Below are positions 12,012 through 29,772 of a stretch of 48,659 nt of DNA, in pieces. Both the position numbers and the translations under genes were made by a program. The DNA is from Candidatus Pacearchaeota archaeon. Its GTDB lineage: Archaea; Nanobdellota; Nanobdellia; Pacearchaeales; GW2011-AR1. The stretch lies in the NCBI GenBank assembly GCA_023142835.1, contig JAGLIS010000023.1:1-48659 (forward strand). The letters run 5' to 3'. The notes below the pieces were generated by a model. The model saw only the letters and a program-made list of their open reading frames with translations, searched no databases and was not told where the DNA came from. Numbering within the stretch: position 1 is the first letter of the stretch; each line of letters opens with the position of its first letter.

Positions 12012-12572
12012 ATGAAGGAAGTGGGGAATGTTTTGAGGATTTTAAGAGAGACTAAGAAGTTTATGGAAGAGGGTAATTTTCATGAAATAAAAGATTTATC
12101 AAGTCAGACAATTCATTCTGCGACAATTTCTCAAGATGCGGATAATATTATTGTGGCTGTTTTGGTTTATTCTTTGAGTAAGATTCTTGAACGAGAGCAT
12201 TACAGAGATATGGAAGGTTGGTCGGAGTTTTATGATGCTATGACTAAAAATCTTGATTTGGCTATTCAGGCGCTTGAGAAGAATGATGTTGAAAAAACGC
12301 GGGTTTATCTTGGGAAGATTAGAAATTCATTGAATAAAATTTCGGGTGATCTGGGTCAGTATATTAAGGATATTTTTAGGAAGGCGGAAATTAATAAGGC
12401 GTTTAAACTTTATGAGCATGGTTTGTCGTCGGAGCAGACTGCAAAGCTTCTTGGAGTGAGTTTGTGGGATATGGCATCGTATATTGGACAGTCACATATT
12501 GGCGATTCAAAAATTGCGATTAGTATGCCTGTGGCGAAGAGGGTTAAGATTGCAGAGGATATTTTTGGATGA
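12012..12572 (+). CDS. Hypothetical protein with C-terminal HTH-like segment
   Basis: LSSEQTAKLLGVSLWDMASYIG. No family recognised. Confidence 0.5.
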   Translation: MKEVGNVLRILRETKKFMEEGNFHEIKDLSSQTIHSATISQDADNIIVAVLVYSLSKILEREHYRDMEGWSEFYDAMTKNLDLAIQALEKNDVEKTRVYLGKIRNSLNKISGDLGQYIKDIFRKAEINKAFKLYEHGLSSEQTAKLLGVSLWDMASYIGQSHIGDSKIAISMPVAKRVKIAEDIFG

Positions 12573-12634
12573 AGATTCGGAAGGCGAAGAAAGGGGATGA
12601 AATGCGGATTTCTGGTATATTCAGAAGGGGTTAG
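12569..12634 (+). other. Mini-ORF MKIRKAKKGDEMRISGIFRRG, looks like an N-terminal stub of a GNAT-type gene
   Basis: ATG overlaps the upstream TGA (ATGA). The M.IR.A...D start is typical of acetyltransferases. Truncated after 21 codons. Confidence 0.35.
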
Positions 12635-12680
12635 TTGAAATTTTTTACTAAGGTGGATGCAATTCGGAACGAGATGAATC

Positions 12681-12696
12681 GGTAGATTTAAAAGTT
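12681..12696 (+). promoter_or_regulatory. GGTAGATTTAAAAGTT motif (BRE/TATA-like), copy 1
   Basis: Same 16-mer at 32044-32059. Variants at 32092-32105 and 40350-40370. Confidence 0.3.
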
Positions 12697-12849
12697 CTTG
12701 AATTTTGAAGTATCTATGGCAAGTAACCGAAGTATACGGATGAAGAATTTAACTGTTAGTTTGGTCTGTGCTGTTTTGTTCTACGCTGGATAAATGTTGA
12801 TCCCACTTGGGACATTTATGCAAAATCATCTAAATTTTTATTTTACAAT

Positions 12850-14451
12850 ATGATATCTATTAACGATTTTACAAAAAGCTTTGAAAGAGACAATTTATTC
12901 GAAAACATGAATTTAATAATCCATCCGAATAAGCGAATTGCGTTAGTCGGTAAAAATGGTGCAGGGAAAACGACGTTTCTAAGGTGTCTGGTTGGACAGG
13001 AAGAGTTCCAGGGAAGAATCACAACTGACAAAATAAAGATAAGTATAATGGAACAGGAAAACAACTTTGAAAATTTAGATAAAACATTTAACGACTATAT
13101 TAGCGACAAGAAGCAAGGGTTGGAAAAGATGAAAATTGAACTAGAAGAACAGATGAGTGCCCCTGAATTTTATGAAGATGAAAATAAATTTAGTGCATTA
13201 ATGAATCGTTATGATCTTCTTTTGACAGATGGTTCATTTGAATTAGAAAATGCTGATCTAATCGAAATTCTAGACAAGTTAGATATAAATGAGAATGTTC
13301 TAAACCAGAAGATATCTAGCTTGAGCGGCGGGCAAAAGATAAAGTTACGTCTTGCAGAATGTCTTGCGAAAAAGGCCGATCTCTACTTGCTAGATGAGCC
13401 AACAAATCACATAGATTTGGAAACGTCTGAATGGCTGGGAAAACATATTCAAGAAAATATAAAATCTTTAATTGTAATTTCTCATGATAGGTATTTTTTA
13501 AATGAGATTGTAGATGAGGTATGGAAAATCGAAGACAAAAAACTGGAAAAGTATATAGGTAGTTATGACGATTATGAAGAAGAAGAATTTAAACATTTGA
13601 AATTGTTAAGAGAGAAATTCAGGGATGCCACAAGGCGAAAGGAAAAGTTATTGGAATCTGCGAAAGAAAAAAGGCGTTGGGCTTCTATGGCAGGGAGTAA
13701 AAGATTAAAGTCCTTAGCAGATAGATTGGAGCGAGAAGCGGAAAGTATAGAGATAGGAGTGAACCCTGAAGATTTACTTGTTGACATTAAAATAGCATTC
13801 ACAAATAAGAAGCTTCATAAATGTGAGGTCTTCAGATTAGTCGATTTGACTAAAAAGTTCGAAGAGAAAATACTTTTTGAGAATGTTAATCAAGAGATTA
13901 CTAATGGTGAGAAGATTGCGATTATCGGAAGAAATGGAAGTGGGAAGACAACTTTATTGAAAATGCTAATGGGGCATGAGGCAGTAACGGGTGGAGCTAT
14001 GAATAAAAGGCAGGACTTAAAGATAGGTTACTTTGATCAAGAGCTAGGAGATATAGACAAAAAACAAACAGTAATGGAATTTTTAGAAAGCGAGATAGGC
14101 AAAAAGCGAGAAACTCTGACTTCGGCTCTTTCGGGATTTGATTTTGATAAAAAATTTCTTTCTCAAAAAATCAAAAAATTATCTGGCGGAGAAAAGGGAA
14201 GATTAAATATCTTAAGGATAACATTAGAGGATAATGAGATCTTATTATTGGATGAACCAACAAATAATCTAGACATTAATCTAAAAGATTTATTAGAGAA
14301 GGCGATTAGGAAATTTCCCGGGACGGTTGTGATTATTTCTCATGATAGGCATTTTATGGATAAGGTGGCTACGAGAATATTCGAGATTAAAGATAAAAAG
14401 ATAAAAGGTTATAGTGGAAACTATTCTGATTATCTTGAAATTAAAAAGTAG
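12850..14451 (+). CDS. ABC-F family ATPase (two nucleotide-binding domains, no membrane domain)
   Basis: GKNGAGKTT/LSGGQK/LLDEPTNH and GRNGSGKTT/LSGGEKGR/LLDEPTNN, with a charged helical inter-domain linker. Confidence 0.9.
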   Translation: MISINDFTKSFERDNLFENMNLIIHPNKRIALVGKNGAGKTTFLRCLVGQEEFQGRITTDKIKISIMEQENNFENLDKTFNDYISDKKQGLEKMKIELEEQMSAPEFYEDENKFSALMNRYDLLLTDGSFELENADLIEILDKLDINENVLNQKISSLSGGQKIKLRLAECLAKKADLYLLDEPTNHIDLETSEWLGKHIQENIKSLIVISHDRYFLNEIVDEVWKIEDKKLEKYIGSYDDYEEEEFKHLKLLREKFRDATRRKEKLLESAKEKRRWASMAGSKRLKSLADRLEREAESIEIGVNPEDLLVDIKIAFTNKKLHKCEVFRLVDLTKKFEEKILFENVNQEITNGEKIAIIGRNGSGKTTLLKMLMGHEAVTGGAMNKRQDLKIGYFDQELGDIDKKQTVMEFLESEIGKKRETLTSALSGFDFDKKFLSQKIKKLSGGEKGRLNILRITLEDNEILLLDEPTNNLDINLKDLLEKAIRKFPGTVVIISHDRHFMDKVATRIFEIKDKKIKGYSGNYSDYLEIKK

Positions 14452-14476
14452 TTAATTTTTTACTTAAGAATAAAGA

Positions 14477-14545
14477 AATAAATATTTAATTTTCGATGCG
14501 GAGTTGATAATGGGCAGATATTTAAATAGTATTTTACTTATATGA
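14477..14545 (+). pseudogene. Start-less 5' stub of the PIN-like gene at 15922
   Basis: Reads ..KYLIFDAELIMGRYLNSILLI*; the ATG is replaced by AAT. Confidence 0.5.
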
Positions 14546-14622
14546 ATAATATGTTACTTAATGAAAAGGAATTTAAAATTTAATGATGGGGGGAGTCATA
14601 TTTTGGCGATGAAAAAATTAAA

Positions 14623-14679
14623 ATGAAATATTTAATCTTCGACGCAGGATTTAAAATTATGAATGGGGTGTTTGAATGA
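14623..14679 (+). other. Mini-ORF MKYLIFDAGFKIMNGVFE (5' stub of the PIN-like gene)
   Basis: First 23 nt identical to 15922-15944. Its TGA overlaps the nitroreductase ATG. Confidence 0.6.
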
Positions 14680-15254
14680 AATTCCAAGAAGTAATTGACA
14701 AAAGACATACTACGAGAGAATTTGAAGAAAAGAAAGTTTCGTTGAAGACCTTAAAAAAATTAGTCTCGAATGCAACAAAAGCACCTTCTGCAGCAAATTG
14801 GCAGCCAGGGGAATTTTATATAATTCAATCAGAAGAGATGATAAAAAAACTTTCAGAAATATTAGTGAAATTTTTAGGAAAAGAAAATAAAGAATTGAAA
14901 AAACTTCCGAAGAAATTGCAGGGAATAACCAATAAATTTTATTCAACTCTTGGAGGATGTAAAACTGTAATTTTTGTGTATACAAAAAGAAATAAAGATT
15001 TGAGAAAAAGAGATAGTAGTATTATGAGTGTTTCTGCGTCAATTGAGAATTTGTTGCTTAGTGCAGTTGATGAAAATCTTGGGACTTGCTGGATGGGTTC
15101 ATTCAAGATGGTTCAAAAAGAGATTAATGTGCTTTTGAAAATTCCAAAAAACTTTGAAATGGTTGCGGGATTATTAATTGGTTATCCAAAGAAGGGTTAT
15201 ATTCCGCTTAAAAGAAAAAAGAAAAAACTTTCGGAGGTTTTGAGAGTTATATGA
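14676..15254 (+). CDS. Nitroreductase family protein
   Basis: IDKRHTTREFEEKKVS...ATKAPSAANWQP and the C-terminal GYP motif region. Confidence 0.85.
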   Translation: MKFQEVIDKRHTTREFEEKKVSLKTLKKLVSNATKAPSAANWQPGEFYIIQSEEMIKKLSEILVKFLGKENKELKKLPKKLQGITNKFYSTLGGCKTVIFVYTKRNKDLRKRDSSIMSVSASIENLLLSAVDENLGTCWMGSFKMVQKEINVLLKIPKNFEMVAGLLIGYPKKGYIPLKRKKKKLSEVLRVI

Positions 15255-15391
15255 AATATCTAATCTTCTATACGGGAAAAATTAAAAACCAAAACAAATA
15301 TAAACTGAGTTCTATAATAGATTATAATTTAAGTCCTCGGTGTTACCTGCAAGGATATGCTGGGTTTTATATTTTTAAGAGGTGTTTTTGA
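15251..15391 (+). other. 46-codon mini-ORF starting with a second stub of the PIN-like gene (MKYLIFYTGK...)
   Basis: ATG overlaps the nitroreductase TGA. Its TGA is immediately followed by the ATG at 15392. Confidence 0.55.
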
Positions 15392-15925
15392 ATGAAACTA
15401 ATTTATATTTACGGACCTCCTGCTTCGGGAAAACTAACTGTAGCTAAAGAACTAGAGAAACTTACAAAATATAAATTGTTTCATAATCATTTGATTAATG
15501 ATGTTATTTCAGAAATTATGGATTTTGAACATCCTAAATTCTGGAAATTTACTGATAGATTGAAATTGGAGGTTTTTGGTTTAGCTTCTCGATTTAATGT
15601 AGGGGGAATGATTTTTACTCAAACATATGTTGGCGGGAGTTTTCCAAAGAAAGCAAAAAAAATAATTGAAAAGTATGATGGAAGAGTTTATTTTGTAAAA
15701 CTTGAACCGAGCAAAGAGGAATTAATGAAAAGGGTTTGTTATGTTTTTAGAAAGAAATATCAAAAATTTTCTTCAAAAAATGAATTAAAAAAATTTATGG
15801 AAAAAAATGATGCCTATAGGAAAGCTTCTGCAAAAAATCAAATGATCATCGATAATACATGTGTTCCCTCGAAGAAAGTCGCTGAGATGATTGTAAAGAA
15901 TTTTAAATTGAGGAGATTATTATGA
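15392..15925 (+). CDS. P-loop NTPase / small-molecule-kinase-like protein
   Basis: Variant Walker A GPPASGKLT. Paralogue of 17451-17990. Confidence 0.65.
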   Translation: MKLIYIYGPPASGKLTVAKELEKLTKYKLFHNHLINDVISEIMDFEHPKFWKFTDRLKLEVFGLASRFNVGGMIFTQTYVGGSFPKKAKKIIEKYDGRVYFVKLEPSKEELMKRVCYVFRKKYQKFSSKNELKKFMEKNDAYRKASAKNQMIIDNTCVPSKKVAEMIVKNFKLRRLL

Positions 15926-16596
15926 AATATTTAATCTTCGACGCTGGGCCGATAATTTCTTTGACGATGAATGGGATGTTGTATTTGGTTGAGAATTTGA
16001 AGGAAGGGTTTGATGGAGAATTTATTTTGACGCCTCAGGTTAAGAGAGAGGTTGTTGACAGGCCGATGAAAATTAAGAAGTATAAGCTCGAAGCTATTCA
16101 GGTTAATGATATGATTGAGAGAGGTGTTTTTAAGATGTCTTCGGAGATTGTGTCAAATCAGAAATTGGATGTGGAAGTTAAGCGGATTTTGAAAGTTACT
16201 GGAGGAGTTTTAAGAACGGTGCAAACTGGTGAGAAGATAAAGATTATTCATAGTGGTGAAGCGGCGTGTCTCGCATTTTCTAAGTTATGTGGTGCGGAGA
16301 GTGTAATCATTATTGATGAGAGAACTACAAGGATGTTGACGGAGGCACCGCAGAATTTGAAGGAGATGATGGAGAGGAAATTGCATACACCACTTAAAGC
16401 AGAACTGTCGTTGCTGGATGAGTTGAAGGATTTTAAATTCATCCGTTCTGCAGAGCTTCTTTTTGTTGCTTATAAAAAAGGGTTAATACCTATAAAGAAA
16501 AGTAAAGATTTACTTGATGCTTTGCTTTATGGTGTCAAGTTTAAAGGTGCGGCGATTTCTTCTAAAGAGATTGAAGAGATGAAAAAATTGGTTTAG
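15922..16596 (+). CDS. PIN-like nucleic-acid-binding protein (PIN_3/DUF3368-like)
   Basis: IFDAGPIISL, TPQVKREV, HSGEAACLA, IIIDERTTR. Confidence 0.55.
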   Translation: MKYLIFDAGPIISLTMNGMLYLVENLKEGFDGEFILTPQVKREVVDRPMKIKKYKLEAIQVNDMIERGVFKMSSEIVSNQKLDVEVKRILKVTGGVLRTVQTGEKIKIIHSGEAACLAFSKLCGAESVIIIDERTTRMLTEAPQNLKEMMERKLHTPLKAELSLLDELKDFKFIRSAELLFVAYKKGLIPIKKSKDLLDALLYGVKFKGAAISSKEIEEMKKLV

Positions 16597-16680: not shown

Positions 16681-17358
16681 TTATAAGATTAACTTTGGAA
16701 TTTCGTCTAAAGACTTGACTTGCGAATACTTTTCTAATTTTGAATCAGGAGAATCTGATCTATGAACATATATTCCTTTAGCATTTGCCGGATAATTCTT
16801 CCTTAAATCATCTGCCACAAGAACATCCTCTGCTCTATCTCCAATACAATAGATGTCACCCTCTTGATATTGCATTTTTTTTAACAAATCTATTGCCCCT
16901 TCATACTTTGTTTTTTGGTCATTGGAAACTATACTAATTCTATCTCCAAAATATTCTTCTAATCCCAAATGTCGAATTTTTTGAAGTTGATTGCTTTTAT
17001 TAGAGGATCTTGAAAGTAACCCTAAATTTACTCCATTTTCCATTAAGGAATTTAATATCTTTCTTGTTTCAGAATAAAGAGTTATTTCTCCAGAGTTTAA
17101 AGCACCATCTAGTGTATACAAATTCTTAAAATTCTCTCTGTAGCTTTGATCTAATTCTTCTTTACCAAATCCGTATTGAGCTGCTAATGCATATTTGTCC
17201 TTTTTCCCTTCGGTAACTGCCTGTCTTTCTGTAATGGAAATACCAAGACCTCTGAATGTTTTTATAAGCTCATTAGACATCCATTTGTCAGAATTTACCA
17301 AAGTTCCATCAAGGTCAAATATAGCAACTCTCTTTTTCGATATATCTTTATTTATCAT
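16681..17358 (-). CDS. HAD-superfamily phosphatase
   Basis: VAIFDLDGTLVNS motif I and a GDRAEDV motif IV-like region. ATG at 17358 preferred over TTG at 17373; a TATA-like TTTATATATT lies ~25 nt upstream. Confidence 0.85.
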   Translation of the reverse strand: MINKDISKKRVAIFDLDGTLVNSDKWMSNELIKTFRGLGISITERQAVTEGKKDKYALAAQYGFGKEELDQSYRENFKNLYTLDGALNSGEITLYSETRKILNSLMENGVNLGLLSRSSNKSNQLQKIRHLGLEEYFGDRISIVSNDQKTKYEGAIDLLKKMQYQEGDIYCIGDRAEDVLVADDLRKNYPANAKGIYVHRSDSPDSKLEKYSQVKSLDEIPKLIL

Positions 17359-17450: not shown

Positions 17451-17990
17451 ATGAAATTAATATTTGTTTATGGCCCTCCAGCATCGGGAAAACTTACTGT
17501 ATCAAAAGAATTATCAAAAATTACTGGATATAAATTGTTTCACAATATGCTTACAGTTGACTTGGCGCAAACTGTTTTGGATTGGAATGATAAAAATTTC
17601 GGTGACTTAACAACAAAATACAGACTTATAACTTTTGAAGAGGCAGCAAAAGCAAATGTAGAAGGGATTATATTTACTTATGCTTATGCACCTGGAGTTG
17701 ATGATGATTTTGTAAAAAAAGTTATTAATCAAATGAAATCACATAATGGAGAGATACATTTTGTGCAGATTCACGCAGAAAAAGAAGAACTATTAAAAAG
17801 AGTTGAAAGCGATTCTAGAAAAGAACTCAAAAAATTAATTGATAAATCTGTATTAGAAAAGCAGTTAGTCAAGAGAGATCAATATGCAAAAATTCCTTTT
17901 GTTGAAACTTTTTCTGTTGATACTACCTGCGTTTCTGCAAAAGAAACTGCTGAGAAAATAAAAGAACATTTTAAATTAGTTTCTGATTAA
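17451..17990 (+). CDS. P-loop NTPase / kinase-like protein, paralogue of 15392-15925
   Basis: MKLIFVYGPPASGKLTVSKEL..YKLFHN matches MKLIYIYGPPASGKLTVAKEL..YKLFHN. Confidence 0.65.
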   Translation: MKLIFVYGPPASGKLTVSKELSKITGYKLFHNMLTVDLAQTVLDWNDKNFGDLTTKYRLITFEEAAKANVEGIIFTYAYAPGVDDDFVKKVINQMKSHNGEIHFVQIHAEKEELLKRVESDSRKELKKLIDKSVLEKQLVKRDQYAKIPFVETFSVDTTCVSAKETAEKIKEHFKLVSD

Positions 17991-18240: not shown

Positions 18241-18717
18241 ATGGAATGGACTATTAAGGAGGAGAATGAATTGAAAGAAAAATATTTTTCTTGTGTCAAT
18301 CTTAGAGAACTTGAAATTCATTTGAATCGAAGTGTTCGCTCCATAAAACAAAAGGCCGCAAGACTTGGATTGTCAAGAGGGCGTGCGCCTATCAATAAAC
18401 CGAAAAATAAGAAACATAGAAATATTATAGATAAAAAATATTATGAGAATAACAAAAAGAGAATTTAACACACTAAGACAAAACGATTGAGAAGGATAAA
18501 AGCTGAAATAATAAATTTTTTGGGAGGAAGATGTTCCAAATGTGGTTATGATAAATGTAGGGCGGCGTTGGAATTTCATCACAATACTTCAGATAAGGGT
18601 GGGGATATGGCGTATATAATTAAAAATAAATCTAGAGAGAAGGCTTTAAAAGAAGGAAAGAAATGTATATTATTATGTGCGAATTGTCATAGAGAATTGC
18701 ACAATAGGGGTTCATAG
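18241..18717 (+). pseudogene. HNH endonuclease with N-terminal HTH, interrupted by a single in-frame TAA (18466-18468)
   Basis: ORFs 18241-18468 and 18487-18717 share one frame: ..YYENNKKRI*HTKTKRLRRIKAEIINFLGGRCSKCGY...LEFHH...CANCHRELH. Confidence 0.65.
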
Positions 18718-18778
18718 TTCAAAGGTAGAATTTCGGTCTCCAGAACCGACGATGTGGGTTCGATTCCTGCTGAGCCCA
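18708..18778 (+). tRNA. tRNA-Trp (anticodon CCA), no intron
   Basis: Acceptor GGGTTCA/TGAGCCC, D arm GTTC-AAAGGTA-GAAT, anticodon arm TCGGT-CTCCAGA-ACCGA, T loop TTCGATT. Confidence 0.85.
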
Positions 18779-18824: not shown

Positions 18825-19253
18825 ATGGTAAAAAAGAAGGTGGATGATGAAGATTCTAAGGGAGCTGTTGGGAAGGAGCATGTTTCTAAGAAGAGGACTT
18901 CTTCGGAAAAGCGGATGACTGCAAGGGAGCGTGAGGATCTTCTGATTGAAAATTTTGTTGGATTGCAACATGCGATGACAAATCTTTCTGTGAAGTTTGA
19001 ATCTCTTTCAGATAATATTACAAAGTTGCTTCAGGTTTTTGAAGAGGCGGCAAAGAGTTTTGTTTCTGGTGATAAGCTGGATGATAAGTCTATGTTGAAG
19101 AAGATAGATTCTTTATTGGAGCAAAATAAAACTATTGCGAAGGGTTTGATTTTAATGGAAGGAAGTTTAAGGAATCGTTCTGAAGTTGTTGAGCAAGAAT
19201 CTAGTTATTCTGAGACGTCGTATCCAAAACCTAGGCCTCTTCCGAGCCTATGA
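18825..19253 (+). CDS. Hypothetical coiled-coil protein (142 aa)
   Basis: Long ORF with a basic N-terminus. No family recognised. Confidence 0.55.
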   Translation: MVKKKVDDEDSKGAVGKEHVSKKRTSSEKRMTAREREDLLIENFVGLQHAMTNLSVKFESLSDNITKLLQVFEEAAKSFVSGDKLDDKSMLKKIDSLLEQNKTIAKGLILMEGSLRNRSEVVEQESSYSETSYPKPRPLPSL

Positions 19254-19432
19254 TAAATAAATTTTTGGTTGAAGTAGTTTTTAGATTATGCAATGACGGA
19301 GTCCTTGCTGATCAAAAATCGGGGGATTTTTGCTAATGATAAATAAATTTGAAATTGAATGGTTTTCTAGATTATGCAATGGCAAAGCCCTTGCTAATCA
19401 AAAATCTGAAATAAATTTAGGGATTTTTGCTT
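19250..19432 (+). repeat. Two tandem units (86 and 97 nt), each starting with ATGATAAATAAATTT and containing a conserved imperfect hairpin
   Basis: Units at 19250-19335 and 19336-19432; hairpins at 19284-19313 and 19370-19399. Each unit is also a mini-ORF (MINKF...RLCN..LA.QKS..). Confidence 0.8.
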
Positions 19433-20218
19433 ATGAGTTCTGAAGATTTATCCATGATTGCGTTGGAGCCGTTTATTAGTAAATTTGTTTTTGCAATAGT
19501 TCAGAATATTCGTTCACAGAATTTTTCTTATGAAGAGAAGCAGGTTATTAATGCAGATTTTGTGCCTAAGATTTCTGAAAAATCTATGCAGTCTTTTTTG
19601 AAGGATAAAAAGGTTAATTCTACGAAAGAGAGTGTGAATGAATTAGTGGCTTCGATAAGTAAGCCTATTGTTAAGGTTCTTGTTAAGAAGCAAATGCGAT
19701 TTTCATTACCACCACGTATTCAAGATTCTAGGGCGACGCAAGTATTTTCATCACAACCTGTTTTTCCACTTCAGGAGATTTTACCTCCGCAACCACAAAA
19801 AATTTTTTCTAATAGTGAGGTTCCTGTCTCTCCTCAAGTTTTTTCACCTAAGGTTGTGAGTCCTCTAGCTAGTGCTCCGAAGGTTCCTTTAAGTGTTGAG
19901 CCTAGTCAAGGTTATGGGAAGATTTCCCCTCTTTTGAATGATCCTTTGATTTCTTTGATTGAATGTCGTGGGGCGGGAAAACCTGTGATGATTATTAGGG
20001 TAGGTCAGAAGCAACTTACTCGAATAAATTTGAATCCTTTGGAGATTAATGAAATTTTGCAGAAGGTTTCGGATACAATTCATATTCCTTTGCTTGAAGG
20101 GGTTTTCCGAGCTGTTGTTGACGATTTTTCTATTAATGCGATTATCTCTGAGATGGTTGGGTCAAAGTTTGTTATTAGAAAGAATACTCCGTATTCGTTA
20201 CTTGAGAGACAGGTTTAA
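19433..20218 (+). CDS. Hypothetical Pro-rich protein; C-terminal part resembles the N-domain of GspE/FlaI-type ATPases
   Basis: LLNDPLISLIECRGAGKPVMII. No ATPase domain. The ORF track starts at TTG 19427. Confidence 0.45.
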   Translation: MSSEDLSMIALEPFISKFVFAIVQNIRSQNFSYEEKQVINADFVPKISEKSMQSFLKDKKVNSTKESVNELVASISKPIVKVLVKKQMRFSLPPRIQDSRATQVFSSQPVFPLQEILPPQPQKIFSNSEVPVSPQVFSPKVVSPLASAPKVPLSVEPSQGYGKISPLLNDPLISLIECRGAGKPVMIIRVGQKQLTRINLNPLEINEILQKVSDTIHIPLLEGVFRAVVDDFSINAIISEMVGSKFVIRKNTPYSLLERQV

Positions 20219-22521: not shown

Positions 22522-24045
22522 ATGGATGAAAAATTGATTGTAGAGTTTTTGTCTCCTATTGAAAGAGCTACGCTTCCTAAGTTGGGTCTGGATTTTTCTG
22601 ATTTGGAAGATGTTGCGAAGAAAACTTCTCAGGATAAAACTACTGTGCTTCGGGCAATTGGATTTTTGAAGAATAAGGGTTTGATTGAGAGTGAGAGTTC
22701 TGAAGAAGAGGTTGTTAGTTTAGGAATTTTAGGAATTTATTATTTGAAGAAAGAGTTGCCAGAGAGAGTGCTTTTGAATAAGCTTTCTGAGAAGGGAGGG
22801 ATTTTGATTAGTGAGATTCGGAATGTTTGTGGGTTGAATGAGAATGAAGCGAAGATTGCGTTTGGAACATTGAAGAAAAAGGCACTTGTAGAAATTGAGA
22901 AAGGGAAGTTGAATCTTGTTGCGAAATCTAGTGAGGTTACTAAGAAGATGCTGGAGGAATTATTTCTTGAGAAGCTTCCTCTTAATGTTGATTTGATTGA
23001 GGCACAGGATAAATTGGCCTTGCAGAATTTGAAGTCTAGGAAGGATATTATTAAGGTTGAGATTCAGAAGAAAATTAGCGTTAAGTTGACTGAATTGGGT
23101 AAGAAGATTTCATCGAGGGATTTGGATAAGAATTTAATTGAGCAGTTGACTCCTAAGATGATAAAGCAAAATACTTGGAAGGGGAAGAAGTTTCGGAGGT
23201 ATGATTTGTCCTTACCTGTTCCGAGGGTTTATGGGGGAAAAAGATATTTTGTTAATCAAGCGATTGATTATGCTAAGTCGATTTGGTTGGAAATGGGTTT
23301 TAAGGAAATGACTGGGAGTAAGATTGAGACAGGTTTTTGGATTTTCGATGCATTGTTTACTGCACAAGATCATCCAGTTAGAGAAATGCAAGATACGTTT
23401 TATTTGAAAGGTATGGAGGGGAAATTGCCTGATGACAAGAAATTAATTGAGAGTGTGAAGAAAGCACACGAAGGAGGGATTGATGGGAGTAAGGGTTGGC
23501 AATATAAATGGGATGAAGAAAATGCGAAAAAGGTTTTGATGAGAACACATACTACTTCGTTGTCGGCTAGAAAGCTTAGAGAGATTAGAGATACGAAAGA
23601 GTTTCCTGCGAAGTATTTTGCTATTGGAAAATGTTTTAGAAACGAGACTGTTGATTGGTCGCACGGGTTTGAGTTTAATCAAACTGAGGGGATTGTCGTC
23701 GATGAGAATGCGAATTTTAGACAACTACTCGGTTATTTGATTCAATTTTATAAGAAAATGGGTTATGAGAAAATTAGGATAAGACCGGCGTATTTTGCAT
23801 ATACCGAGCCTTCATTAGAAGTCGATGTTTTTCATCCTGTGCATAAGAAATGGGTTGAGCTTGGAGGTGCAGGAATGTTTAGACCAGAAGTAACTATTCC
23901 TATGTTCGGAAAACATATTCCTGTTTTGGCATGGGGGCAGGGATTTGATAGGATTATTACGGAGTTCTTTGAGATTAATGATTTACGAGAAGTTTACAAG
24001 AATGATATAAATAAATTGAGGGAGATGAAGTTTTGGAGAAAATGA
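22522..24045 (+). CDS. pheS: Phenylalanyl-tRNA synthetase alpha subunit (archaeal/eukaryal type)
   Basis: HPVREMQDTFYL, RTHTTSLSAR, FRNETVDWSHGFEFNQTEG, GAGMFRPEV. Confidence 0.95.
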   Translation: MDEKLIVEFLSPIERATLPKLGLDFSDLEDVAKKTSQDKTTVLRAIGFLKNKGLIESESSEEEVVSLGILGIYYLKKELPERVLLNKLSEKGGILISEIRNVCGLNENEAKIAFGTLKKKALVEIEKGKLNLVAKSSEVTKKMLEELFLEKLPLNVDLIEAQDKLALQNLKSRKDIIKVEIQKKISVKLTELGKKISSRDLDKNLIEQLTPKMIKQNTWKGKKFRRYDLSLPVPRVYGGKRYFVNQAIDYAKSIWLEMGFKEMTGSKIETGFWIFDALFTAQDHPVREMQDTFYLKGMEGKLPDDKKLIESVKKAHEGGIDGSKGWQYKWDEENAKKVLMRTHTTSLSARKLREIRDTKEFPAKYFAIGKCFRNETVDWSHGFEFNQTEGIVVDENANFRQLLGYLIQFYKKMGYEKIRIRPAYFAYTEPSLEVDVFHPVHKKWVELGGAGMFRPEVTIPMFGKHIPVLAWGQGFDRIITEFFEINDLREVYKNDINKLREMKFWRK

Positions 24046-24440
24046 ATAAGAAAAAGAAGGATATAATTAAGAAAGTTAGGCTTAGAAGTTTATCTAAGAA
24101 GAATTTGAGATGTGAATTTGTTTTTGGAAAAAGTTTGGAGGTTGTTGATGTGATTGATAAGATTTTAAGTAGATTGGGAGATTTAGAAGAGCTTGATTTA
24201 GCTAATGGGGAATCACGAAAGGTAAAAATTAATGAATGGGTTGATGTAGTTTGTAATATTAAAAATGATGATTATTCTGTTGATGTTTTTTTTGGGAAGA
24301 GCAAGATTGTTTTAGTGATTAACAGTCGAAGGGATAAGCAGAGGGAGATTTCAGAGGCTGTGTTTGAGTTTGTAGAGCTTGAAGATATAACTTCTAAAAA
24401 TTTAAGTAAATTAAACTGGATGAAGTTTTGGAGGAAGTGA
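24042..24440 (+). CDS. Hypothetical protein orfA; C-terminal 13 aa copied from the PheS tail
   Basis: ATG overlaps the pheS TGA. Ends NLSKLNWMKFWRK* (PheS ends DINKLREMKFWRK*). Paralogue of orfB. Confidence 0.6.
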   Translation: MNKKKKDIIKKVRLRSLSKKNLRCEFVFGKSLEVVDVIDKILSRLGDLEELDLANGESRKVKINEWVDVVCNIKNDDYSVDVFFGKSKIVLVINSRRDKQREISEAVFEFVELEDITSKNLSKLNWMKFWRK

Positions 24441-24790
24441 TGGTTAAGTTAAGAAGTACAGACAAGGGAAAATTTAGATGTGAATTTAATTTTGAGAAGA
24501 GTGATGAAGTCATTGACGCTATTACTTCTATAGTGGGAAGGTTGGGAATGAATGAATCTCCAGAGAATAATTTGAGGGATTTGATTTACGACGAAAGAAG
24601 TTCTGGTTTAGGATTTAAGATTGAAGAAGCTGTTGATGAAATATATGGGATGAATAATAAAGATTATTTTGTAAATATTTTTCTTGGAAATGAAAAAATT
24701 ATTTTAGTTGTTAATAGTTTTACTGATAAACAAAAGGAAATTTCTGAAGCGGTGTTTGAGTTTGCGGATTTTGAGGAGGTGAGAAAATGA
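24440..24790 (+). CDS. Hypothetical protein orfB, tandem paralogue of orfA
   Basis: RCEFNFEKSDEVIDAI..DKQKEISEAVFEF matches RCEFVFGKSLEVVDVI..DKQREISEAVFEF. TGATG overlap with orfA. Confidence 0.6.
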   Translation: MVKLRSTDKGKFRCEFNFEKSDEVIDAITSIVGRLGMNESPENNLRDLIYDERSSGLGFKIEEAVDEIYGMNNKDYFVNIFLGNEKIILVVNSFTDKQKEISEAVFEFADFEEVRK

Positions 24791-25161
24791 CAATACTAAA
24801 TAACGGAATAAAAAATATGATTGAAAATAATGCCTTGGGATTTGCGAGTATAGACAAATCTGGAAAGCCTCACAATATTGCAGTTGGTTTTGTAAAAGTT
24901 GTATCTAATAATGAACTAGTTATCTCAGATAATTATCTTAATGAGACTGTTGAAAATATAAAAATAAATCCAAGCGTTTCACTTGTCGTATGGAGTAGGG
25001 ATTGGGAAGAAAACTGTGCAGGGTATGAGTTAAAAGGGACTGTGGAATATTTTACGGAAGGAAACTGGATTGATTTTATCAAGAAAATTCCAGTAAATAG
25101 GAATGAGCCTTGTAAGGGAGCGATATTAGTTAAACTAAATAAGATTAAAATTTTATCTTGA
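24787..25161 (+). CDS. Pyridoxamine 5'-phosphate oxidase-like FMN-binding (split-barrel) protein
   Basis: FASIDKSGKPHNIAVGF...NIKINPSVSLVVW. First 13 nt identical to the pheT start. Confidence 0.7.
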   Translation: MTILNNGIKNMIENNALGFASIDKSGKPHNIAVGFVKVVSNNELVISDNYLNETVENIKINPSVSLVVWSRDWEENCAGYELKGTVEYFTEGNWIDFIKKIPVNRNEPCKGAILVKLNKIKILS

Positions 25162-25162
25162 A

Positions 25163-25216
25163 ATGACAATATTAATATTAAATAAATCAGGGGATATGAG
25201 GTTTTGGAGGAAATGA
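25163..25216 (+). other. Mini-ORF MTILILNKSGDMRFWRK: pheT head fused in frame to pheS tail
   Basis: 25163-25190 resembles the pheT 5' end and 25184-25216 the pheS 3' end. Its TGA overlaps the next ATG. Confidence 0.6.
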
Positions 25217-25782
25217 AAAAATTAATTTTAATCCATGGATGGGGAGGAAGCCCAATTAGTGAATCTTGGTTTGACTTATTGAGAAAAGAATGTGAAGATA
25301 AGAACATTGATTTCATTGCACCAGAGATGCCAAACACAGATAGTCCAAGAGTTGATGAATGGATTTCAAAACTTAGGGAGGTTGCGATAAATTTAGATGA
25401 GGAGACTTATTTTGTGGGTCATAGTATGGGTTGTCAAACTATAATAAGATATTTATCTGAGATTGACAGTGAGATAAAAGTTGGAAGAATAGTTTTTGTT
25501 GCACCATGGACAAAATTAAACGAGAAGTCGATTGAAGAAGAAGGGGAAGAAAGCGAAAAAATCGTTAAATCTTGGGAAGAAGTTCCAATAGATTTTGGGA
25601 AAGCGAAGAGTCATTTAATGAGAGTTTTAGCGATTTTCTCTGATAATGATCCATATGTTCTCTTATCTGAAACGAAAGTTTTCGGAGATAAGTTGGGAGC
25701 AGAGATAATTATTAAACATGATGAGGGGCATTTTAATGAAACAAAAGAGATAAATGAGATAATGGAGTTTATTGAAAGATGA
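25213..25782 (+). CDS. Serine hydrolase of the RBBP9/YdeN alpha/beta family
   Basis: ILIHGWGGSP, GHSMGC nucleophile elbow, DNDPYV, HDEGHF. Confidence 0.8.
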   Translation: MKKLILIHGWGGSPISESWFDLLRKECEDKNIDFIAPEMPNTDSPRVDEWISKLREVAINLDEETYFVGHSMGCQTIIRYLSEIDSEIKVGRIVFVAPWTKLNEKSIEEEGEESEKIVKSWEEVPIDFGKAKSHLMRVLAIFSDNDPYVLLSETKVFGDKLGAEIIIKHDEGHFNETKEINEIMEFIER

Positions 25783-26441
25783 CGATATTAACTGTTAATA
25801 AAAAAGAATTGAGGAAGCCGATGATTGCTGTTTCGATGTCAGGAGTTTTGATTAGTTCTAAGTTTTGGAAGGAGGCTCATGATTTTGGAATGAAGGAACT
25901 TTCGAAGAAAGTAGGTGATTCATCGATATTAAAGGCAAGGGATTCTCCAGACTATTTTAAGAAAGTTGAGGAAGCGTTGGAGAAAATTTATCCGGACTTG
26001 ACATTAGTAGAAAGGATAAAGAAGCGAAGAGAAATTTATTTCGAGAGGGTTGTTAATTCAATTAAGAGGAATTTGGATATTCGAGAAGATGTGACTGATT
26101 GTCTTTGGGGTTTGAAGGAGAATTATCGGTTAGCTTTGGTGACGACGAATAACGAGAAGACGACTTATGAGATTCTTAGGTTTTTGACAGCCAGAGATTT
26201 TTTTGATGTTGTTGAGTTTTCTAAGGATGAGGAGAAGGACGATAAGATTGAGGTAATGAAAAGATTGATTGAGAAAAATGGGAAACCAATCTTGTTCATT
26301 GAGAAGTCAGAGAAGTTGAAGGATTTTTGTGAAGAAGGGAAAATTGCTTATATTAATTTTAATGTTGATTTGGAAGGTGCCATAGATTTGAAAAGTAAAA
26401 TTGAAGAGAAATTAAACCTTGGAGGAAGTGATGGGAATTAG
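25779..26441 (+). CDS. HAD-like protein with degenerate catalytic motif; N-terminus copied from PheT
   Basis: MTILTVNKKEL versus PheT MTILTLDKKEL. SMSGVL sits where DxDGT is expected. LVTTNN. Confidence 0.6.
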   Translation: MTILTVNKKELRKPMIAVSMSGVLISSKFWKEAHDFGMKELSKKVGDSSILKARDSPDYFKKVEEALEKIYPDLTLVERIKKRREIYFERVVNSIKRNLDIREDVTDCLWGLKENYRLALVTTNNEKTTYEILRFLTARDFFDVVEFSKDEEKDDKIEVMKRLIEKNGKPILFIEKSEKLKDFCEEGKIAYINFNVDLEGAIDLKSKIEEKLNLGGSDGN

Positions 26442-26805
26442 AGAATTACAGAATAAGATAAAGGAATTTGATGTTGCTAGAGGTTGGGAGAATCATTGGA
26501 ATATCAAAGATTTGCTCTTGAACATAACTGAAGAGGGTGGTGAACTTTGGAGTTTGATTAAATGGATTGATGAGGATAAGCAAAAGGAAATTGTTGTTTC
26601 TAATAAAGCTGAGGTTTCTGATTATATTGGAGATACTTTGTTTTTGATCTTGAAACTTGCGAATCAAATGGATGTTGATGCTACTGATGCTTTGAATAGA
26701 ACTTTAAATGATTATGAAAAGAGAATGATACCTGAAGTTATGAAGGAGGTTGGACATGCCAATCCCTTGGCAGGTGGGGTTGATAATAAGGAGGCGTTGG
26801 AATGA
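26431..26805 (+). CDS. MazG-like nucleotide pyrophosphohydrolase
   Basis: RELQNKIKEFDVARGW, TEEGGELW, IGDTLFLILKLAN. Confidence 0.75.
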   Translation: MGIRELQNKIKEFDVARGWENHWNIKDLLLNITEEGGELWSLIKWIDEDKQKEIVVSNKAEVSDYIGDTLFLILKLANQMDVDATDALNRTLNDYEKRMIPEVMKEVGHANPLAGGVDNKEALE

Positions 26806-28457
26806 CAATACTAACATTAGATAAAAAAGAATTGGAAAAGAAAGTTGGGAAGATTACGAAGGAGTTGGAAGAGAAGATTACTAAGATGGGAACTCCGATT
26901 GAAGAAGTTAGTGATGATGAATTATCTGTTGAGGTTTTTCCGAATAGGCCTGATTTGTTGTCTCTTGGAAATTTTTCTAAGGCTATTAATCAATTTAATG
27001 GTGTTGGTAAGATTGCGAACTTTAAAATTAATAAGCCAGAGAAAGATTATGTTGTGACTATCGATAGTTCTGTGAAGGCTGTTAGACCGTATACTGTTTG
27101 TGCAATTGCTAAGGGGTTGAAGTTTACTGAAGAGAAGATTAAGGAAATAATTGATGTTCAAGAGAAGTTGCATAATTCGATTGGGCGAAAGAGGAAAAAG
27201 TTAGCGATTGGAATTTATCCTCTAGATAAGATTGCGTTGCCTATTAGGTTTGTAGCGAGGAAGCCTGGAGATATAAAGTTTTTACCTTTGGAGGCTAGTC
27301 AGGAAATGACTGGGACGCAGATTCTTCGAGGACATCCTACGGGGAGGGAGTATGCACATTTGCTCGAGGGTGCAGAAGTTTTTCCTATTTTTATTGATGC
27401 TAGTGATAAGATTTTGAGTATGCCTCCGATTATTAATTCTCATGAGACTGGGAGGATTGATGAGAAGACGCATGAAGTTTTTATTGAATGTTCGGGACAT
27501 AATTTGGCTTATTTAAAAAAGTGTATGAATATTATTATTGCAACAATTTCTGAGATGGGTGGGAAGATTTACGAGATGAATATTAAGGATTCGAAGGAGG
27601 GGAATTTTGTTTCACCTAATATGTCTTGTGAGGAATTGGAATTTAAAATTTTAGATATTGAAAAGACGCTTGGGATAAAGTTGAGTGAGAAGGAAGTAAA
27701 AAATTATTTGGGTCGGATGGGTATTGGTTGTGAGAATAGGAAGGGGAAATCGGTTGCATTAATTCCTGCTTATCGAACAGATATTTTGCATTGGATTGAT
27801 TTGACTGAGGAGATTGCGATTGCTCATGGTTATGAAAATTTTGAACCGGAGATTCCTAATATTTCAACGATTGCGTTTGAAGATCCTGTTGGGAAGACGA
27901 AGAGGGTCATAGGTAATATTCTTGCAGGGTTGGGATTTTTGGAGACGTCTTCGTTTCATTTGACGACGAAGAAAGATATTAAGAAGATGCATTTTGATTA
28001 TAATGATTTTATTGAGGTGGAGGATTCGAAGACGGGGAGGGATGTTCTTAGGATGGATGTACTGACGAATCTTTTGAAGATTTTGTCGGAGAATTCAGAT
28101 GCAGGATATCCTCAGAAAATTTTTGAGATGGGGACGGTTTTCTCTAGGAGTGATTTAGAAAATTCTGCAACTGGAGTGGATGAGATTGAGAGATTAGCTA
28201 TTGCGTTTATTGATGAGAAGCCTAACTTTATGGAATTAAAGCAGGCGGTTGATTATTTATTTAAGATGCTTGGGAAGGAGTATACTTTGGAAAATGTTGA
28301 GAATTCAAATTATATTATTGGACGGTGTGGGAAGGTTATTGTTGAGGGGAAAGATGTTGGTTTTATTGGCGAGGTTGCTCCAAGGGTTTTGAAGAATTGG
28401 AAACTTAAAATGCCTGCAACTGCGATAGAAATTGATTGGGGGTTTTTGTTTCAATAA
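26802..28457 (+). CDS. pheT: Phenylalanyl-tRNA synthetase beta subunit (archaeal type)
   Basis: B3/4 and B5 domain pattern (FPNRPDLLS, PPIINSHETG). 551 aa. ATGA overlap with the upstream gene. Confidence 0.95.
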   Translation: MTILTLDKKELEKKVGKITKELEEKITKMGTPIEEVSDDELSVEVFPNRPDLLSLGNFSKAINQFNGVGKIANFKINKPEKDYVVTIDSSVKAVRPYTVCAIAKGLKFTEEKIKEIIDVQEKLHNSIGRKRKKLAIGIYPLDKIALPIRFVARKPGDIKFLPLEASQEMTGTQILRGHPTGREYAHLLEGAEVFPIFIDASDKILSMPPIINSHETGRIDEKTHEVFIECSGHNLAYLKKCMNIIIATISEMGGKIYEMNIKDSKEGNFVSPNMSCEELEFKILDIEKTLGIKLSEKEVKNYLGRMGIGCENRKGKSVALIPAYRTDILHWIDLTEEIAIAHGYENFEPEIPNISTIAFEDPVGKTKRVIGNILAGLGFLETSSFHLTTKKDIKKMHFDYNDFIEVEDSKTGRDVLRMDVLTNLLKILSENSDAGYPQKIFEMGTVFSRSDLENSATGVDEIERLAIAFIDEKPNFMELKQAVDYLFKMLGKEYTLENVENSNYIIGRCGKVIVEGKDVGFIGEVAPRVLKNWKLKMPATAIEIDWGFLFQ

Positions 28458-29676: not shown

Positions 29677-29772
29677 GCCTGATTAGCTCAGTTGATAGAG
29701 CGTCGCATTGGTAAAGACTCTTTGAGAAATCCAAAAATGCGGAGGTCGTGGGTTTGATCCCCATGTCAGGCT
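29677..29772 (+). tRNA. tRNA-Thr (anticodon GGT) with a ~23-nt intron at 37/38 (29714-29736)
   Basis: Acceptor GCCTGAT/GTCAGGC, D arm GCTC-AGTTGATA-GAGC, anticodon stem TCGCA/TGCGG, loop TTGGTA|intron|A. Intron CCAA pairs with TTGG (BHB-like). Confidence 0.75.

Follow-up and report, generated by a model that had tools for sequence, protein, structure and literature searches.

A chimeric short open reading frame between pheS and pheT of a Pacearchaeota-like archaeon as a probable recombination seam

Homology-facilitated illegitimate recombination, which combines one homologous anchor with one microhomology joint, has been worked on in Acinetobacter and Streptococcus. The novel joints left by tandem duplication, unequal crossover or illegitimate exchange run head to tail at a short microhomology, with the duplication between the breakpoints and one intact copy of each flanking gene. 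On a larger scale, intervals between two core genes can vary in accessory content while containing no integrase or transposase, and their turnover is best explained by housekeeping recombination anchored in the flanks (Oliveira, Touchon and Rocha 2017, PMC5635113). Gene pairs translated by termination-reinitiation (Huber et al. 2019, PMC6728339; 2023, PMC10666635) have ATGA (-4), TGATG (-1) or near-zero spacings; their coupling needs overlaps and is almost lost at ~20 nucleotides (nt) in Haloferax volcanii and E. coli (PMC10666635). Here we describe a locus with likenesses to each of these systems. It centres on a mini-ORF (open reading frame) at positions 25163 to 25216 of a 48,659-nt stretch of archaeal DNA (contig JAGLIS010000023.1, hereafter the window). 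The mini-ORF lies between pheS and pheT, the genes for the two subunits of phenylalanyl-tRNA synthetase (PheRS), and is probably a recombination seam rather than a gene.

Like the mobile-element-free hotspots, the interval from pheS to pheT has constant flanking genes, variable content and no mobility gene. It differs from them (PMC5635113) in its site, the 1-4 nt stop/start overlap of two operon subunit genes in a DPANN archaeon, in its cargo of single small genes with native stop/start joints, and in the partial copies of the flank ends, which record additive, non-replacing events. The seam also has the head-to-tail microhomology, the duplication and the intact flanking genes of tandem-duplication and illegitimate joints. 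Unlike in those, the two partners here differed in their cargo, which makes the result a gain of genes and not simple duplication. The stub formed by the mini-ORF shows the ATGA, TGATG and near-zero spacings of the termination-reinitiation pairs (PMC6728339, PMC10666635). Those pairs are real and evolutionarily conserved, whereas the upstream 'gene' here is an unconserved 17-codon chimera and the downstream gene, D, has a strong Shine-Dalgarno motif of its own. Recombination of this sort, general or illegitimate and acting at a core-gene-flanked hotspot, is a familiar mechanism, of which this locus, its host group and its record of seams provide new examples. The features on which the seam depends are as follows.

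22522..24045, plus strand: pheS (archaeal PheRS alpha, 507 amino acids, PF01409); its last 41 nt (24005-24045, encoding ...NKLREMKFWRK and the stop) are tail T0
24787..25161, plus strand: gene C (PNPOx-like), opening with the 13-nt head copy H2, ATGACAATACTAA, which is identical to the pheT head
25163..25216, plus strand: mini-ORF and seam, reading MTILILNKSGDMRFWRK before its stop, 17 codons; head copy H3 fused in frame to tail copy T3
25213..25782, plus strand: gene D (Ser_hydrolase), with homologs in the same slot of L067, L068 and L069/70 at 64-69% amino acid identity
26802..28457, plus strand: pheT (PheRS beta, 551 amino acids), starting MTILTLDKKELEKK; head H6 is 26802-26834 (MTILTLDKKEL)

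The mini-ORF consists of the first 8 codons of pheT and the last 11 to 13 codons of pheS, joined in frame. Its ATG at 25163 lies 1 nt past the stop of gene C (25159-25161) and its TGA (25214-25216) overlaps the ATG of the hydrolase gene D at 25213 by 4 nt (ATGA). In this way it fills a 51-nt spacer, the sole gap between genes from pheS to pheT. The comparison loci, designated by L-numbers, comprise 57 that were fetched by PheT similarity and others retrieved via exact-protein look-ups. Head copy H3 (25163-25186) matches the pheT of the window at 21/24 nt and the pheT head of L061 at 22/24, and tail copy T3 (25176-25216) matches the pheS tail at 21/24 nt. In our alignment of the seam, the left half follows the joint between the end of C and the head of pheT in L061 through ATTAAATAA, and the right half follows the pheS tail and the joint between the pheS tail and the head of D in L069. 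The microhomology at the changeover, ATTAAATAA, is read as TTA-AAT-AAA (L-N-K) in pheT and as ATA-AAT-AAA (I-N-K) in pheS, in the same frame in both. Both parental joints are present in relatives. The joint of C and pheT reads TAA-A-ATGACCATATTAACATTAAATAAAAAAG... in L061-63, with TGA-A-ATGACAATATTAATATTAAATAAA as its equivalent in the window, and the joint of pheS and D reads ...GTTTGGAGGAAGTGATGGCG... in L069 and ...GTTTTGGAGGAAATGAAAAAA... in the window. The GGAGG that stands 5 nt upstream of the D ATG and the ATGA joint of D both come from T3.

No relative carries the mini-ORF, which recurs only in contigs of the same strain, at 100% identity. Separate assemblies from at least three samples give the identical sequence (L002, L075 and L076), and the repeat copies, at 78-88% identity, are too diverged to collapse; we rejected an assembly chimera at the seam on these grounds. 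The original prediction, made from the letters of the window, had read the mini-ORF as a PheT-like head on a PheS-like tail, set 1 nt after the upstream stop and ending over the hydrolase ATG; the repeat families bear out the first part and the coordinates the second. It had also interpreted this and similar mini-ORFs as insertion scars. This agrees with the uninterrupted junctions of relatives and with the derivation of the mini-ORFs as copies or remnants of flanking gene ends, and all ten re-translated mini-ORFs, including MTILILNKSGDMRFWRK at 25163-25216, read as it had given them.

The junction of pheS and pheT is a recurrent insertion hotspot in this archaeal group. Both genes are carried by 38 metagenome loci, to which L060-70 were added, and they are co-linear in all of these. 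About 20 loci (L004, L007-9, L024-30, L032-34, L036-37, L039, L042, L048 and L060) have an empty slot, with a gap of -1 to +1 (TGATG, TAATG, TAAAATG); among them is the closest relative, L060, at 89% PheT identity. In ~20 other loci the slot is occupied by 144-2756 nt of small accessory genes. Inserts of 144-2089 nt are present in 17 of the 38 metagenome loci and in L061-70. The residents of the slot in relatives are given below; MazG-like genes, the commonest, occur in at least seven lineages.

L003, L005, L010, L020, L064-66: MazG-like genes (Pfam); L043: homolog of window gene F (tblastn)
L006, L061-63: homologs of C, alone in the slot
L067-70: homologs of D
L051: homolog of window genes A and B
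L011: NUDIX gene
L003, L012: ASCH/DUF3850 gene
L038: GNAT gene
L020: methyltransferase gene
L003, L067: ParE toxin-antitoxin pairs
L022, L051 (MazG-like ORFs), L019 (NUDIX-like) and L017 (ASCH-like): assigned by translation alone, with no Pfam scan

Copies of the pheS and pheT ends accompany these genes in relatives as well: L003 has a head copy (23/24) and a tail copy (19/24), L020 a tail copy (19/24) and L068 a copy at 21/24, and head copies of 32 codons occur in L051 and L067. Across the window and its relatives the head copies measure 13-95 nt and the tail copies 15-45 nt. Pfam scans or precomputed Pfam tables over the window genes contained no integrase (Phage_integrase among them), transposase or other recombinase family, the ORF at the right edge (CDC48-like by translation) being unscanned. 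The variable copy lengths and the missing integrase and transposase together favour general recombination over a site-specific system.

Two further sequences were seen in the slot of relatives. In L051 (8533-8640) and L067 (5938-6048) the 32-codon head copy is followed by a GC-rich segment of ~100 nt, homologous in both loci (GAGCGAC..GTCGCAGGTGGT..GGTCGCT..AGGATGA). This segment is not derived from pheT, lies in a 65-66 codon ORF that ends with ATGA over the next gene in both loci, and was not found in the window or in the other loci. L003 (1106-1648) and L067 (5294-5851) contain a homologous cassette of an antitoxin gene and ParE, with a pheT head copy upstream that has the same joint in both; the ORF of this head copy ends in ...IMKGGRFKYP, 14 nt ahead of the antitoxin ATG. 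The cassette seems to be transferred or retained together with its head copy. L068 has a ParE pair downstream of pheT instead.

Within the window, six genes (A to F) are inserted in the slot, bounded by partial copies of the pheS tail (T) and the pheT head (H) in the order pheS-T0 / A-T1 / B / H2-C / H3-T3 / D / H4-E-T5 / F / H6-pheT. The genes that complete this array are:

24042..24440, plus strand: gene A (132 amino acids, no Pfam family), ATGA-joined to pheS
24440..24790, plus strand: gene B, a paralog of A with 48% amino acid identity; TGATG joint to A
25779..26441, plus strand: gene E (HAD-like); its first 13 codons, MTILTVNKKELRK (25779-25817), are H4
26431..26805, plus strand: gene F (MazG-like)

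A repeat search placed the 41-nt pheS tail at 24005, 24400 and 25176 and the pheT head at 24787, 25163, 25779 and 26802; the boundaries hold the pheS tail three times, together with a short remnant limited to its Shine-Dalgarno motif, and the pheT head three times. T1 makes up the last ~45 nt of A (24396-24440, ...KLNWMKFWRK and stop), to which it is fused in frame, with a repeat identity of 78%. The 3' end of E runs out of frame through T5 (26408-26431, TTGGAGGAAGTGA) and stops 11 nt inside F; two of the three tail copies are thus used in frame. When the mini-ORF is counted, every joint from pheS to pheT is -4, -1, +1 or -11. Some copies resemble the ends of other lineages: H3 is closest to the pheT head of the C-bearing L061, H4 is closest to the L060 type of head (31/36) and not to the pheT head of the window, and the last 21 nt of T1 match the tail type of L068. 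The motif in T1 and T3 is GGAGG, as in other lineages, while the pheS tail of the window has GGAGA. This is mild evidence and suggests that the boundary pieces are of different lineage origin. When 24-nt probes were taken from every gene head and every gene tail, each set yielded 10 matches, whereas internal probes averaged 5. The strong matches all fell in this locus and in a second one treated below; the duplication is local, and we rejected a genome-wide habit of duplicating gene ends.

Two minor observations concern the array. After its 13-codon pheT head, gene E (25779-25860) continues PMIAVSMSGVLISS, where, as judged by eye, SxS seems to stand in place of the usual DxD of HAD motif I, so that E may be a divergent or inactive enzyme. 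The 1.5-kb contig L075, which stems from a different sample, shows full identity with the window from codon 6 of gene A (24057) onwards, past the mini-ORF and into D. In its positions 1-114, which correspond to window 23928-24056, unrelated and partly GC-rich sequence replaces the pheS tail, either as a structural variant at the seam of pheS and A or as a chimera of the contig end.

To explain the seam, we propose that lineages place different small accessory genes in the overlap of the pheS stop and the pheT start by way of native stop/start joints, and that at least two such versions of the slot were concatenated in this strain. One parent would have carried C, as pheS-...-C/pheT in the manner of L061-63, and the other D, as pheS/D-...-pheT in the manner of L069. 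An illegitimate crossover would have led from codon 8 of pheT in the C version to about the 12th codon from the pheS end in the D version, at a microhomology of 9-10 nt (TTAAATAAA / ATAAATAAA) that encodes N-K in frame in both genes. Its product would have one intact pheS, one intact pheT, the summed cargo and a head-to-tail stub. The start of this stub would be the former pheT start, 1 nt past the C stop, and its end the former pheS end, with ATGA over the D start; the pheS-borne GGAGG would serve D. For example, DNA that had been taken up could have recombined through a homologous joint on one side and an illegitimate one on the other, or a circularised fragment could have been integrated. 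The same route would account for the remaining array boundaries (tails on A and E, heads on C and E) and for the copies of a PIN-gene head and an upstream tail at 14452-15391. The stub would have no selected function apart from carrying the ribosome-binding site of D. Such events show gene gain without mobile elements in an ultra-small, tightly packed archaeal genome: accessory genes spliced into the overlap of essential subunit genes reuse the ribosome-binding, start and stop signals of their neighbours, and the end copies record the events. The slot could also mark gene flow among Pacearchaeota.

Several points weigh against this proposal. No relative with the exact parental arrays (A-B-C and D-E-F) was found among the fetched loci, and the two-parent history is a reconstruction. 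Gene E, which has no homolog in any fetched locus, stands between a head copy and a tail remnant and needs an extra step, as a captured filler or from a third parent. The fusion of H2 to C is based on 13 nt only. A and B are 48% identical but T0 and T1 ~80%; separate acquisition fits this, and constraint on the ribosome-binding site could too. A chain of five mini-ORFs at the second locus (P ~2e-4) is only partly explained by junction copies. Lastly, the unbroken series of -4, -1, +1 and -11 joints, in which the seam fills the sole gap, is what a model of ribosome relay predicts.

Alternatively, the array might have formed in situ, by tandem duplication of a segment from the pheS tail to the pheT head together with a resident gene, followed by divergence and the capture or replacement of genes. 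Tandem duplications classically leave a novel joint of this head-to-tail form, a tail copy separates the paralogs A and B (spacing 395 nt), and local duplication does occur in this genome, as seen from the tandem copies at 19250 and 19336. However, the blocks on either side of the seam have no homologous genes in common, A and B are themselves diverged, and H3, H4 and T1 are nearer to the heads and tails of other lineages than to those of the window. In other lineages, homologs of C, of D, of F and of A/B occupy this very slot. On this evidence we infer a crossover between lineages and consider duplication in place rather unlikely.

The original prediction had suggested selection to keep termination-reinitiation coupling across the scars. 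On this view, insertion scars would be kept open and in phase, so that ribosomes terminating at one stop reinitiate at the next start and are handed on from pheS to pheT. Overlaps are enriched among the genes for subunits of heteromeric complexes (PMC10666635), of which PheS and PheT are an example. Co-directional gene pairs in the window are bimodally spaced, with 17 overlaps, 0 at 0-20 nt and 23 at >=24 nt, and all joints from pheS to pheT are short once the stub is counted. Yet the fit of 25163-25216 goes back to two native joints, each of which occurs on its own in relatives. When the whole 51-nt spacer was shuffled, a spanning ORF appeared in 1.4% of trials; when the native joints were kept and only the interior was shuffled, the mini-ORF stayed open in 29% (P=0.29), and given its origin it is therefore unremarkable. 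It is open because both halves are coding and joined in phase, and it fits exactly from stop to start because both parental pieces already had start and stop signals. An in-frame fusion has a prior of 1/3, or a higher one given that the microhomology lies in the reading frame of each parent. D has its own Shine-Dalgarno-like motif (GGAGG), as do the nitroreductase (GGGGTG), P-loop (GAGGTG) and PIN-like (GAGGAG) genes of the second locus.

Other joints speak against such a relay as well. E overlaps F by 11 nt and shows no -4 or -1 overlap, and gaps of 24-700 nt between pheS and pheT are tolerated in L051, L067 and L068. Measured from stop to next ATG, the nine scar ORFs of the window and its relatives end at -4 (four), 0 (one), +14 (two, of the same origin), +114 (one) and +215 (one). 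No general excess of relay chains was seen in real spacers (mean 0.19, against 0.125 in shuffles), and phase compatibility is nearly automatic, because TGAATGA and TAATGA motifs stop two frames and continue the third. Selection for coupling at 25163-25216 finds no support in these tests, and we think its action there decidedly improbable. As a general account of the scars, the relay seems quite unlikely too; if true, it would constrain where and how DNA can enter translationally coupled operons. The evidence that favours it most comes from two other loci of the window, the first of which has these features:

12569..12634, plus strand: mini-ORF MKIRKAKKGD..., 21 codons; what remains of the 5' end of a GNAT gene, located after g186 in L004 (MKVRNAKKED...)
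14452..14675, plus strand: spacer downstream of ABC-F; contains the chain of five mini-ORFs (14510-14679) and decayed copies (U1, U2) of a junction of upstream-gene tail and PIN head
14510-14545, 14542-14583, 14583-14612 (MMGGVIFWR, stop), 14609-14626 (MKKLK, stop) and 14623-14679, plus strand: the chain ORFs
14676..15254, plus strand: inserted nitroreductase gene, whose C-terminus LRVI resembles LRRLL of the P-loop gene
15240..15391, plus strand: junction copy U3 plus ~90 nt, reading as a 46-codon ORF at 15251-15391
15392..15925, plus strand: P-loop kinase-like gene
15922..16596, plus strand: PIN-like gene, whose 5' end is the sequence copied upstream

In relatives the order at this locus (12569-16596) is uninterrupted and ATGA-joined throughout: g186, GNAT, a cytidine-deaminase-like gene and PIN in L004, and GNAT, GNAT and PIN in L011. 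The window has g186, a remnant of the GNAT head, ~215 nt of unmatched sequence, ABC-F, a 224-nt spacer, the nitroreductase, the 46-codon ORF, the P-loop gene and the PIN-like gene. Junction copies are located at 14480-14511 (U1), 14610-14672 (U2, with a 9-nt in-frame deletion relative to PIN) and 15240-15268 (U3), and for each of them 0/300 shuffles reached the alignment score. The chain of five ORFs occurred in 0.02% of dinucleotide shuffles (P ~2e-4), and it is the sole chain of at least three among 145 real co-directional spacers of the window and its relatives. Part of this rarity is due to piled junction copies, each of which brings an ATGA. The original prediction had called for shuffled controls on such open frames; under them the mini-ORF between C and D is ordinary once its joints are kept and the five-ORF chain is rare. 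The unbroken chain that it had described is real, but it begins 58 nt after the ABC-F stop and has no anchor in the upstream gene. The ORF at 15251-15391 was open in 1.35% of interior shuffles (P=0.0135). TATA-like stretches are present at 14650-14660 and 15365-15372. For the chain, a relay is a weaker possibility than for the element at 19250 described below.

The pieces of this locus vary in how clearly they can be traced. The ORF at 12569-12634 is a GNAT remnant and not a relay, with the next gene 215 nt away. The stretch of MMGGVIFWR aligns weakly to the 5' region of the PIN gene (P=0.03), and its FWR is probably not a copy of the pheS tail. A derivation of MMGGVIFWR and MKKLK from the joint between pheS tail and D head was set aside; a decayed PIN 5' region with the tail of a former upstream gene (compare ...AKLK, stop, before PIN in L011) is more likely, with weak support. 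The C-terminus of the nitroreductase may be a tail copy. The interior of 15251-15391 had been considered as the remnant of a known gene or as a paralogous P-loop upstream region, and both were rejected when no homolog was found. Between the GNAT remnant and ABC-F, 12635-12849 (~215 nt) is somewhat richer in G+C than its surroundings and holds no ORF. A structured RNA at 12600-12850 was rejected (z-score -1.3, no Rfam hit), and Rfam at E<=1 gave no match in 12400-15500. Farther downstream, the P-loop gene (AAA_18-like) has a paralog at 17451-17990, 2 kb away and 79% identical over the first 96 nt. Between PIN and g75, L004 lacks the block that this second P-loop gene forms with a HAD gene on the minus strand (16681-17358); the block is a further strain-specific insertion.

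The mini-ORFs at 19250-19336 and 19336-19443 lie in a dispersed element that is a different object from the head and tail seams. Its copies are:

19250..19432, plus strand: two tandem units of 86 and 98 nt, ~75-80% identical; dispersed element with a palindromic core
L064 8045-8159; L072 4797-4880, 6241-6338 and 6339-6436; L073 about 387-541: further copies, 86-116 nt

Eight copies occur in four genome backgrounds: two in the window, one in L064/L071, three in L072 (a Nanoarchaeota metagenome-assembled genome) and two in L073. In L004 and L011 the overlap of g142 and g261 is uninterrupted as CCTATGAGTTCT, and the units of the window are inserted exactly in this ATGA overlap. L064-66 and L071 have a single element directly upstream of pheS. 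Two of the three L072 copies are identical, tandem and TAATG-joined to both neighbours. The element contains an imperfect palindrome, GATTATGCAATGAC...GTCCTTGCTGATC, that is conserved and has 12 pairs, with a compensatory change in one of them, and a second pair of arms, CAAAAATC...GATTTTTG, around a loop of variable length (at least 4-29 nt). Its 3' end, TTTTTGCTAATG, always abuts a start codon, and its ORF, MINKFEIEGFFRLCNDKVLADQKSG..DFC, is usually kept and ends on the downstream ATG. No terminal inverted repeats are visible by eye, and the flanking ATGA or TAATG is either a target duplication or part of the element. A protein query with the concatenated peptides found one 91-amino-acid fusion ORF with the element; no further copies were found in viral contigs. 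Rfam yielded no match to the element, in L072 and L073 also at E<=1, and an Rfam family was rejected as its identity. A C/D-box small RNA was rejected because the box spacing does not fit, and a CRISPR repeat because homology extends to the spacers that separate the copies.

In its short multi-copy palindromic core, unrelated sites and frequent tandem arrangement, and perhaps in its usually kept ORF, the sequence at 19250-19432, and it alone in this window, resembles Rickettsia palindromic elements and MITE-like (miniature inverted-repeat transposable element) or REP-like (repetitive extragenic palindromic) elements (PMC10969869). It differs from the Rickettsia elements (PMC10969869) in its position between genes, in stop/start overlaps or just 5' of a start codon, and in showing neither visible terminal inverted repeats nor a clear target duplication. 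At six of seven copy ends an ORF of at least 28 codons stops on the downstream ATG or runs into it in frame, with a per-copy chance of 0.05-0.13; of these solutions only 3-4 are independent, and the core is open in two frames. L064 and the third L072 copy use a different frame of the core for this read-through ORF. The signal is the best remaining support for a relay, suggestive but not decisive. Of the stop-anchored mini-ORFs in the original prediction, the translations are exact, but 19336-19443 overshoots the next start by 11 nt and 12569-12634 falls 215 nt short of one. We know of no partner transposase for the element. Seams and element could both be translation-transparent spacers, if insertions in overlaps persist only where ribosomes pass, via a relay ORF from the upstream stop to the downstream start; we regard this as unlikely. 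If true, the element would represent a novel type of mobile insert, as well suited to gene boundaries as Rickettsia palindromic elements are to the insides of genes.

An integron-like system, in which the junction of pheS and pheT serves as the attachment site for circular single-gene cassettes, would account for the nitroreductase between two direct copies of the tail/PIN-head junction, for E between a head copy and a tail copy and for the ParE cassette with the same head-copy joint in two lineages; its direct repeats would also permit excision by host recombination. The breakpoints are not fixed, though, and the scanned window genes include no integrase or transposase. The cassette ends show direct copies of the pheS and pheT ends and no attC-like inverted repeats, and B, D and F lie inside the junction rather than between junction copies. 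With no recombinase gene in the window and variable breakpoints, we rejected a site-specific system as very unlikely. That the mini-ORFs encode functional micropeptides, as had also been suggested, is extremely unlikely: they are intact and one (19336-19443) was called by a gene caller, but MTILILNKSGDMRFWRK is a chimera of two enzyme termini with no homolog beyond its parents, the peptides of the second locus have 5-18 residues and come from decayed gene ends, and none is conserved in relatives. For annotation, stop-anchored mini-ORFs in such genomes are best treated with caution, as they are usually seams or gene remnants and not genes.

The window is part of the metagenome scaffold ZHAN22-2_SAMN18200491 scaffold_26. 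Close relatives of its PheT are labelled Candidatus Pacearchaeota or Nanoarchaeota by their sources, and its host is a Pacearchaeota-like DPANN archaeon. G+C is ~33% over the window, with a strong G>C skew; the GC skew is positive on the plus strand over nearly the whole window. Rfam gave just two matches at the gathering threshold over the window, both tRNA. One, tRNA-Trp at 18708-18778, was detected by Rfam and ARAGORN; the other, at 29677-29772, was unreported by ARAGORN, and its length of 96 nt suggests an intron. The gene at 8814-9182 matches the Pfam family OapC (origin-associated protein), and a replication origin may be nearby.

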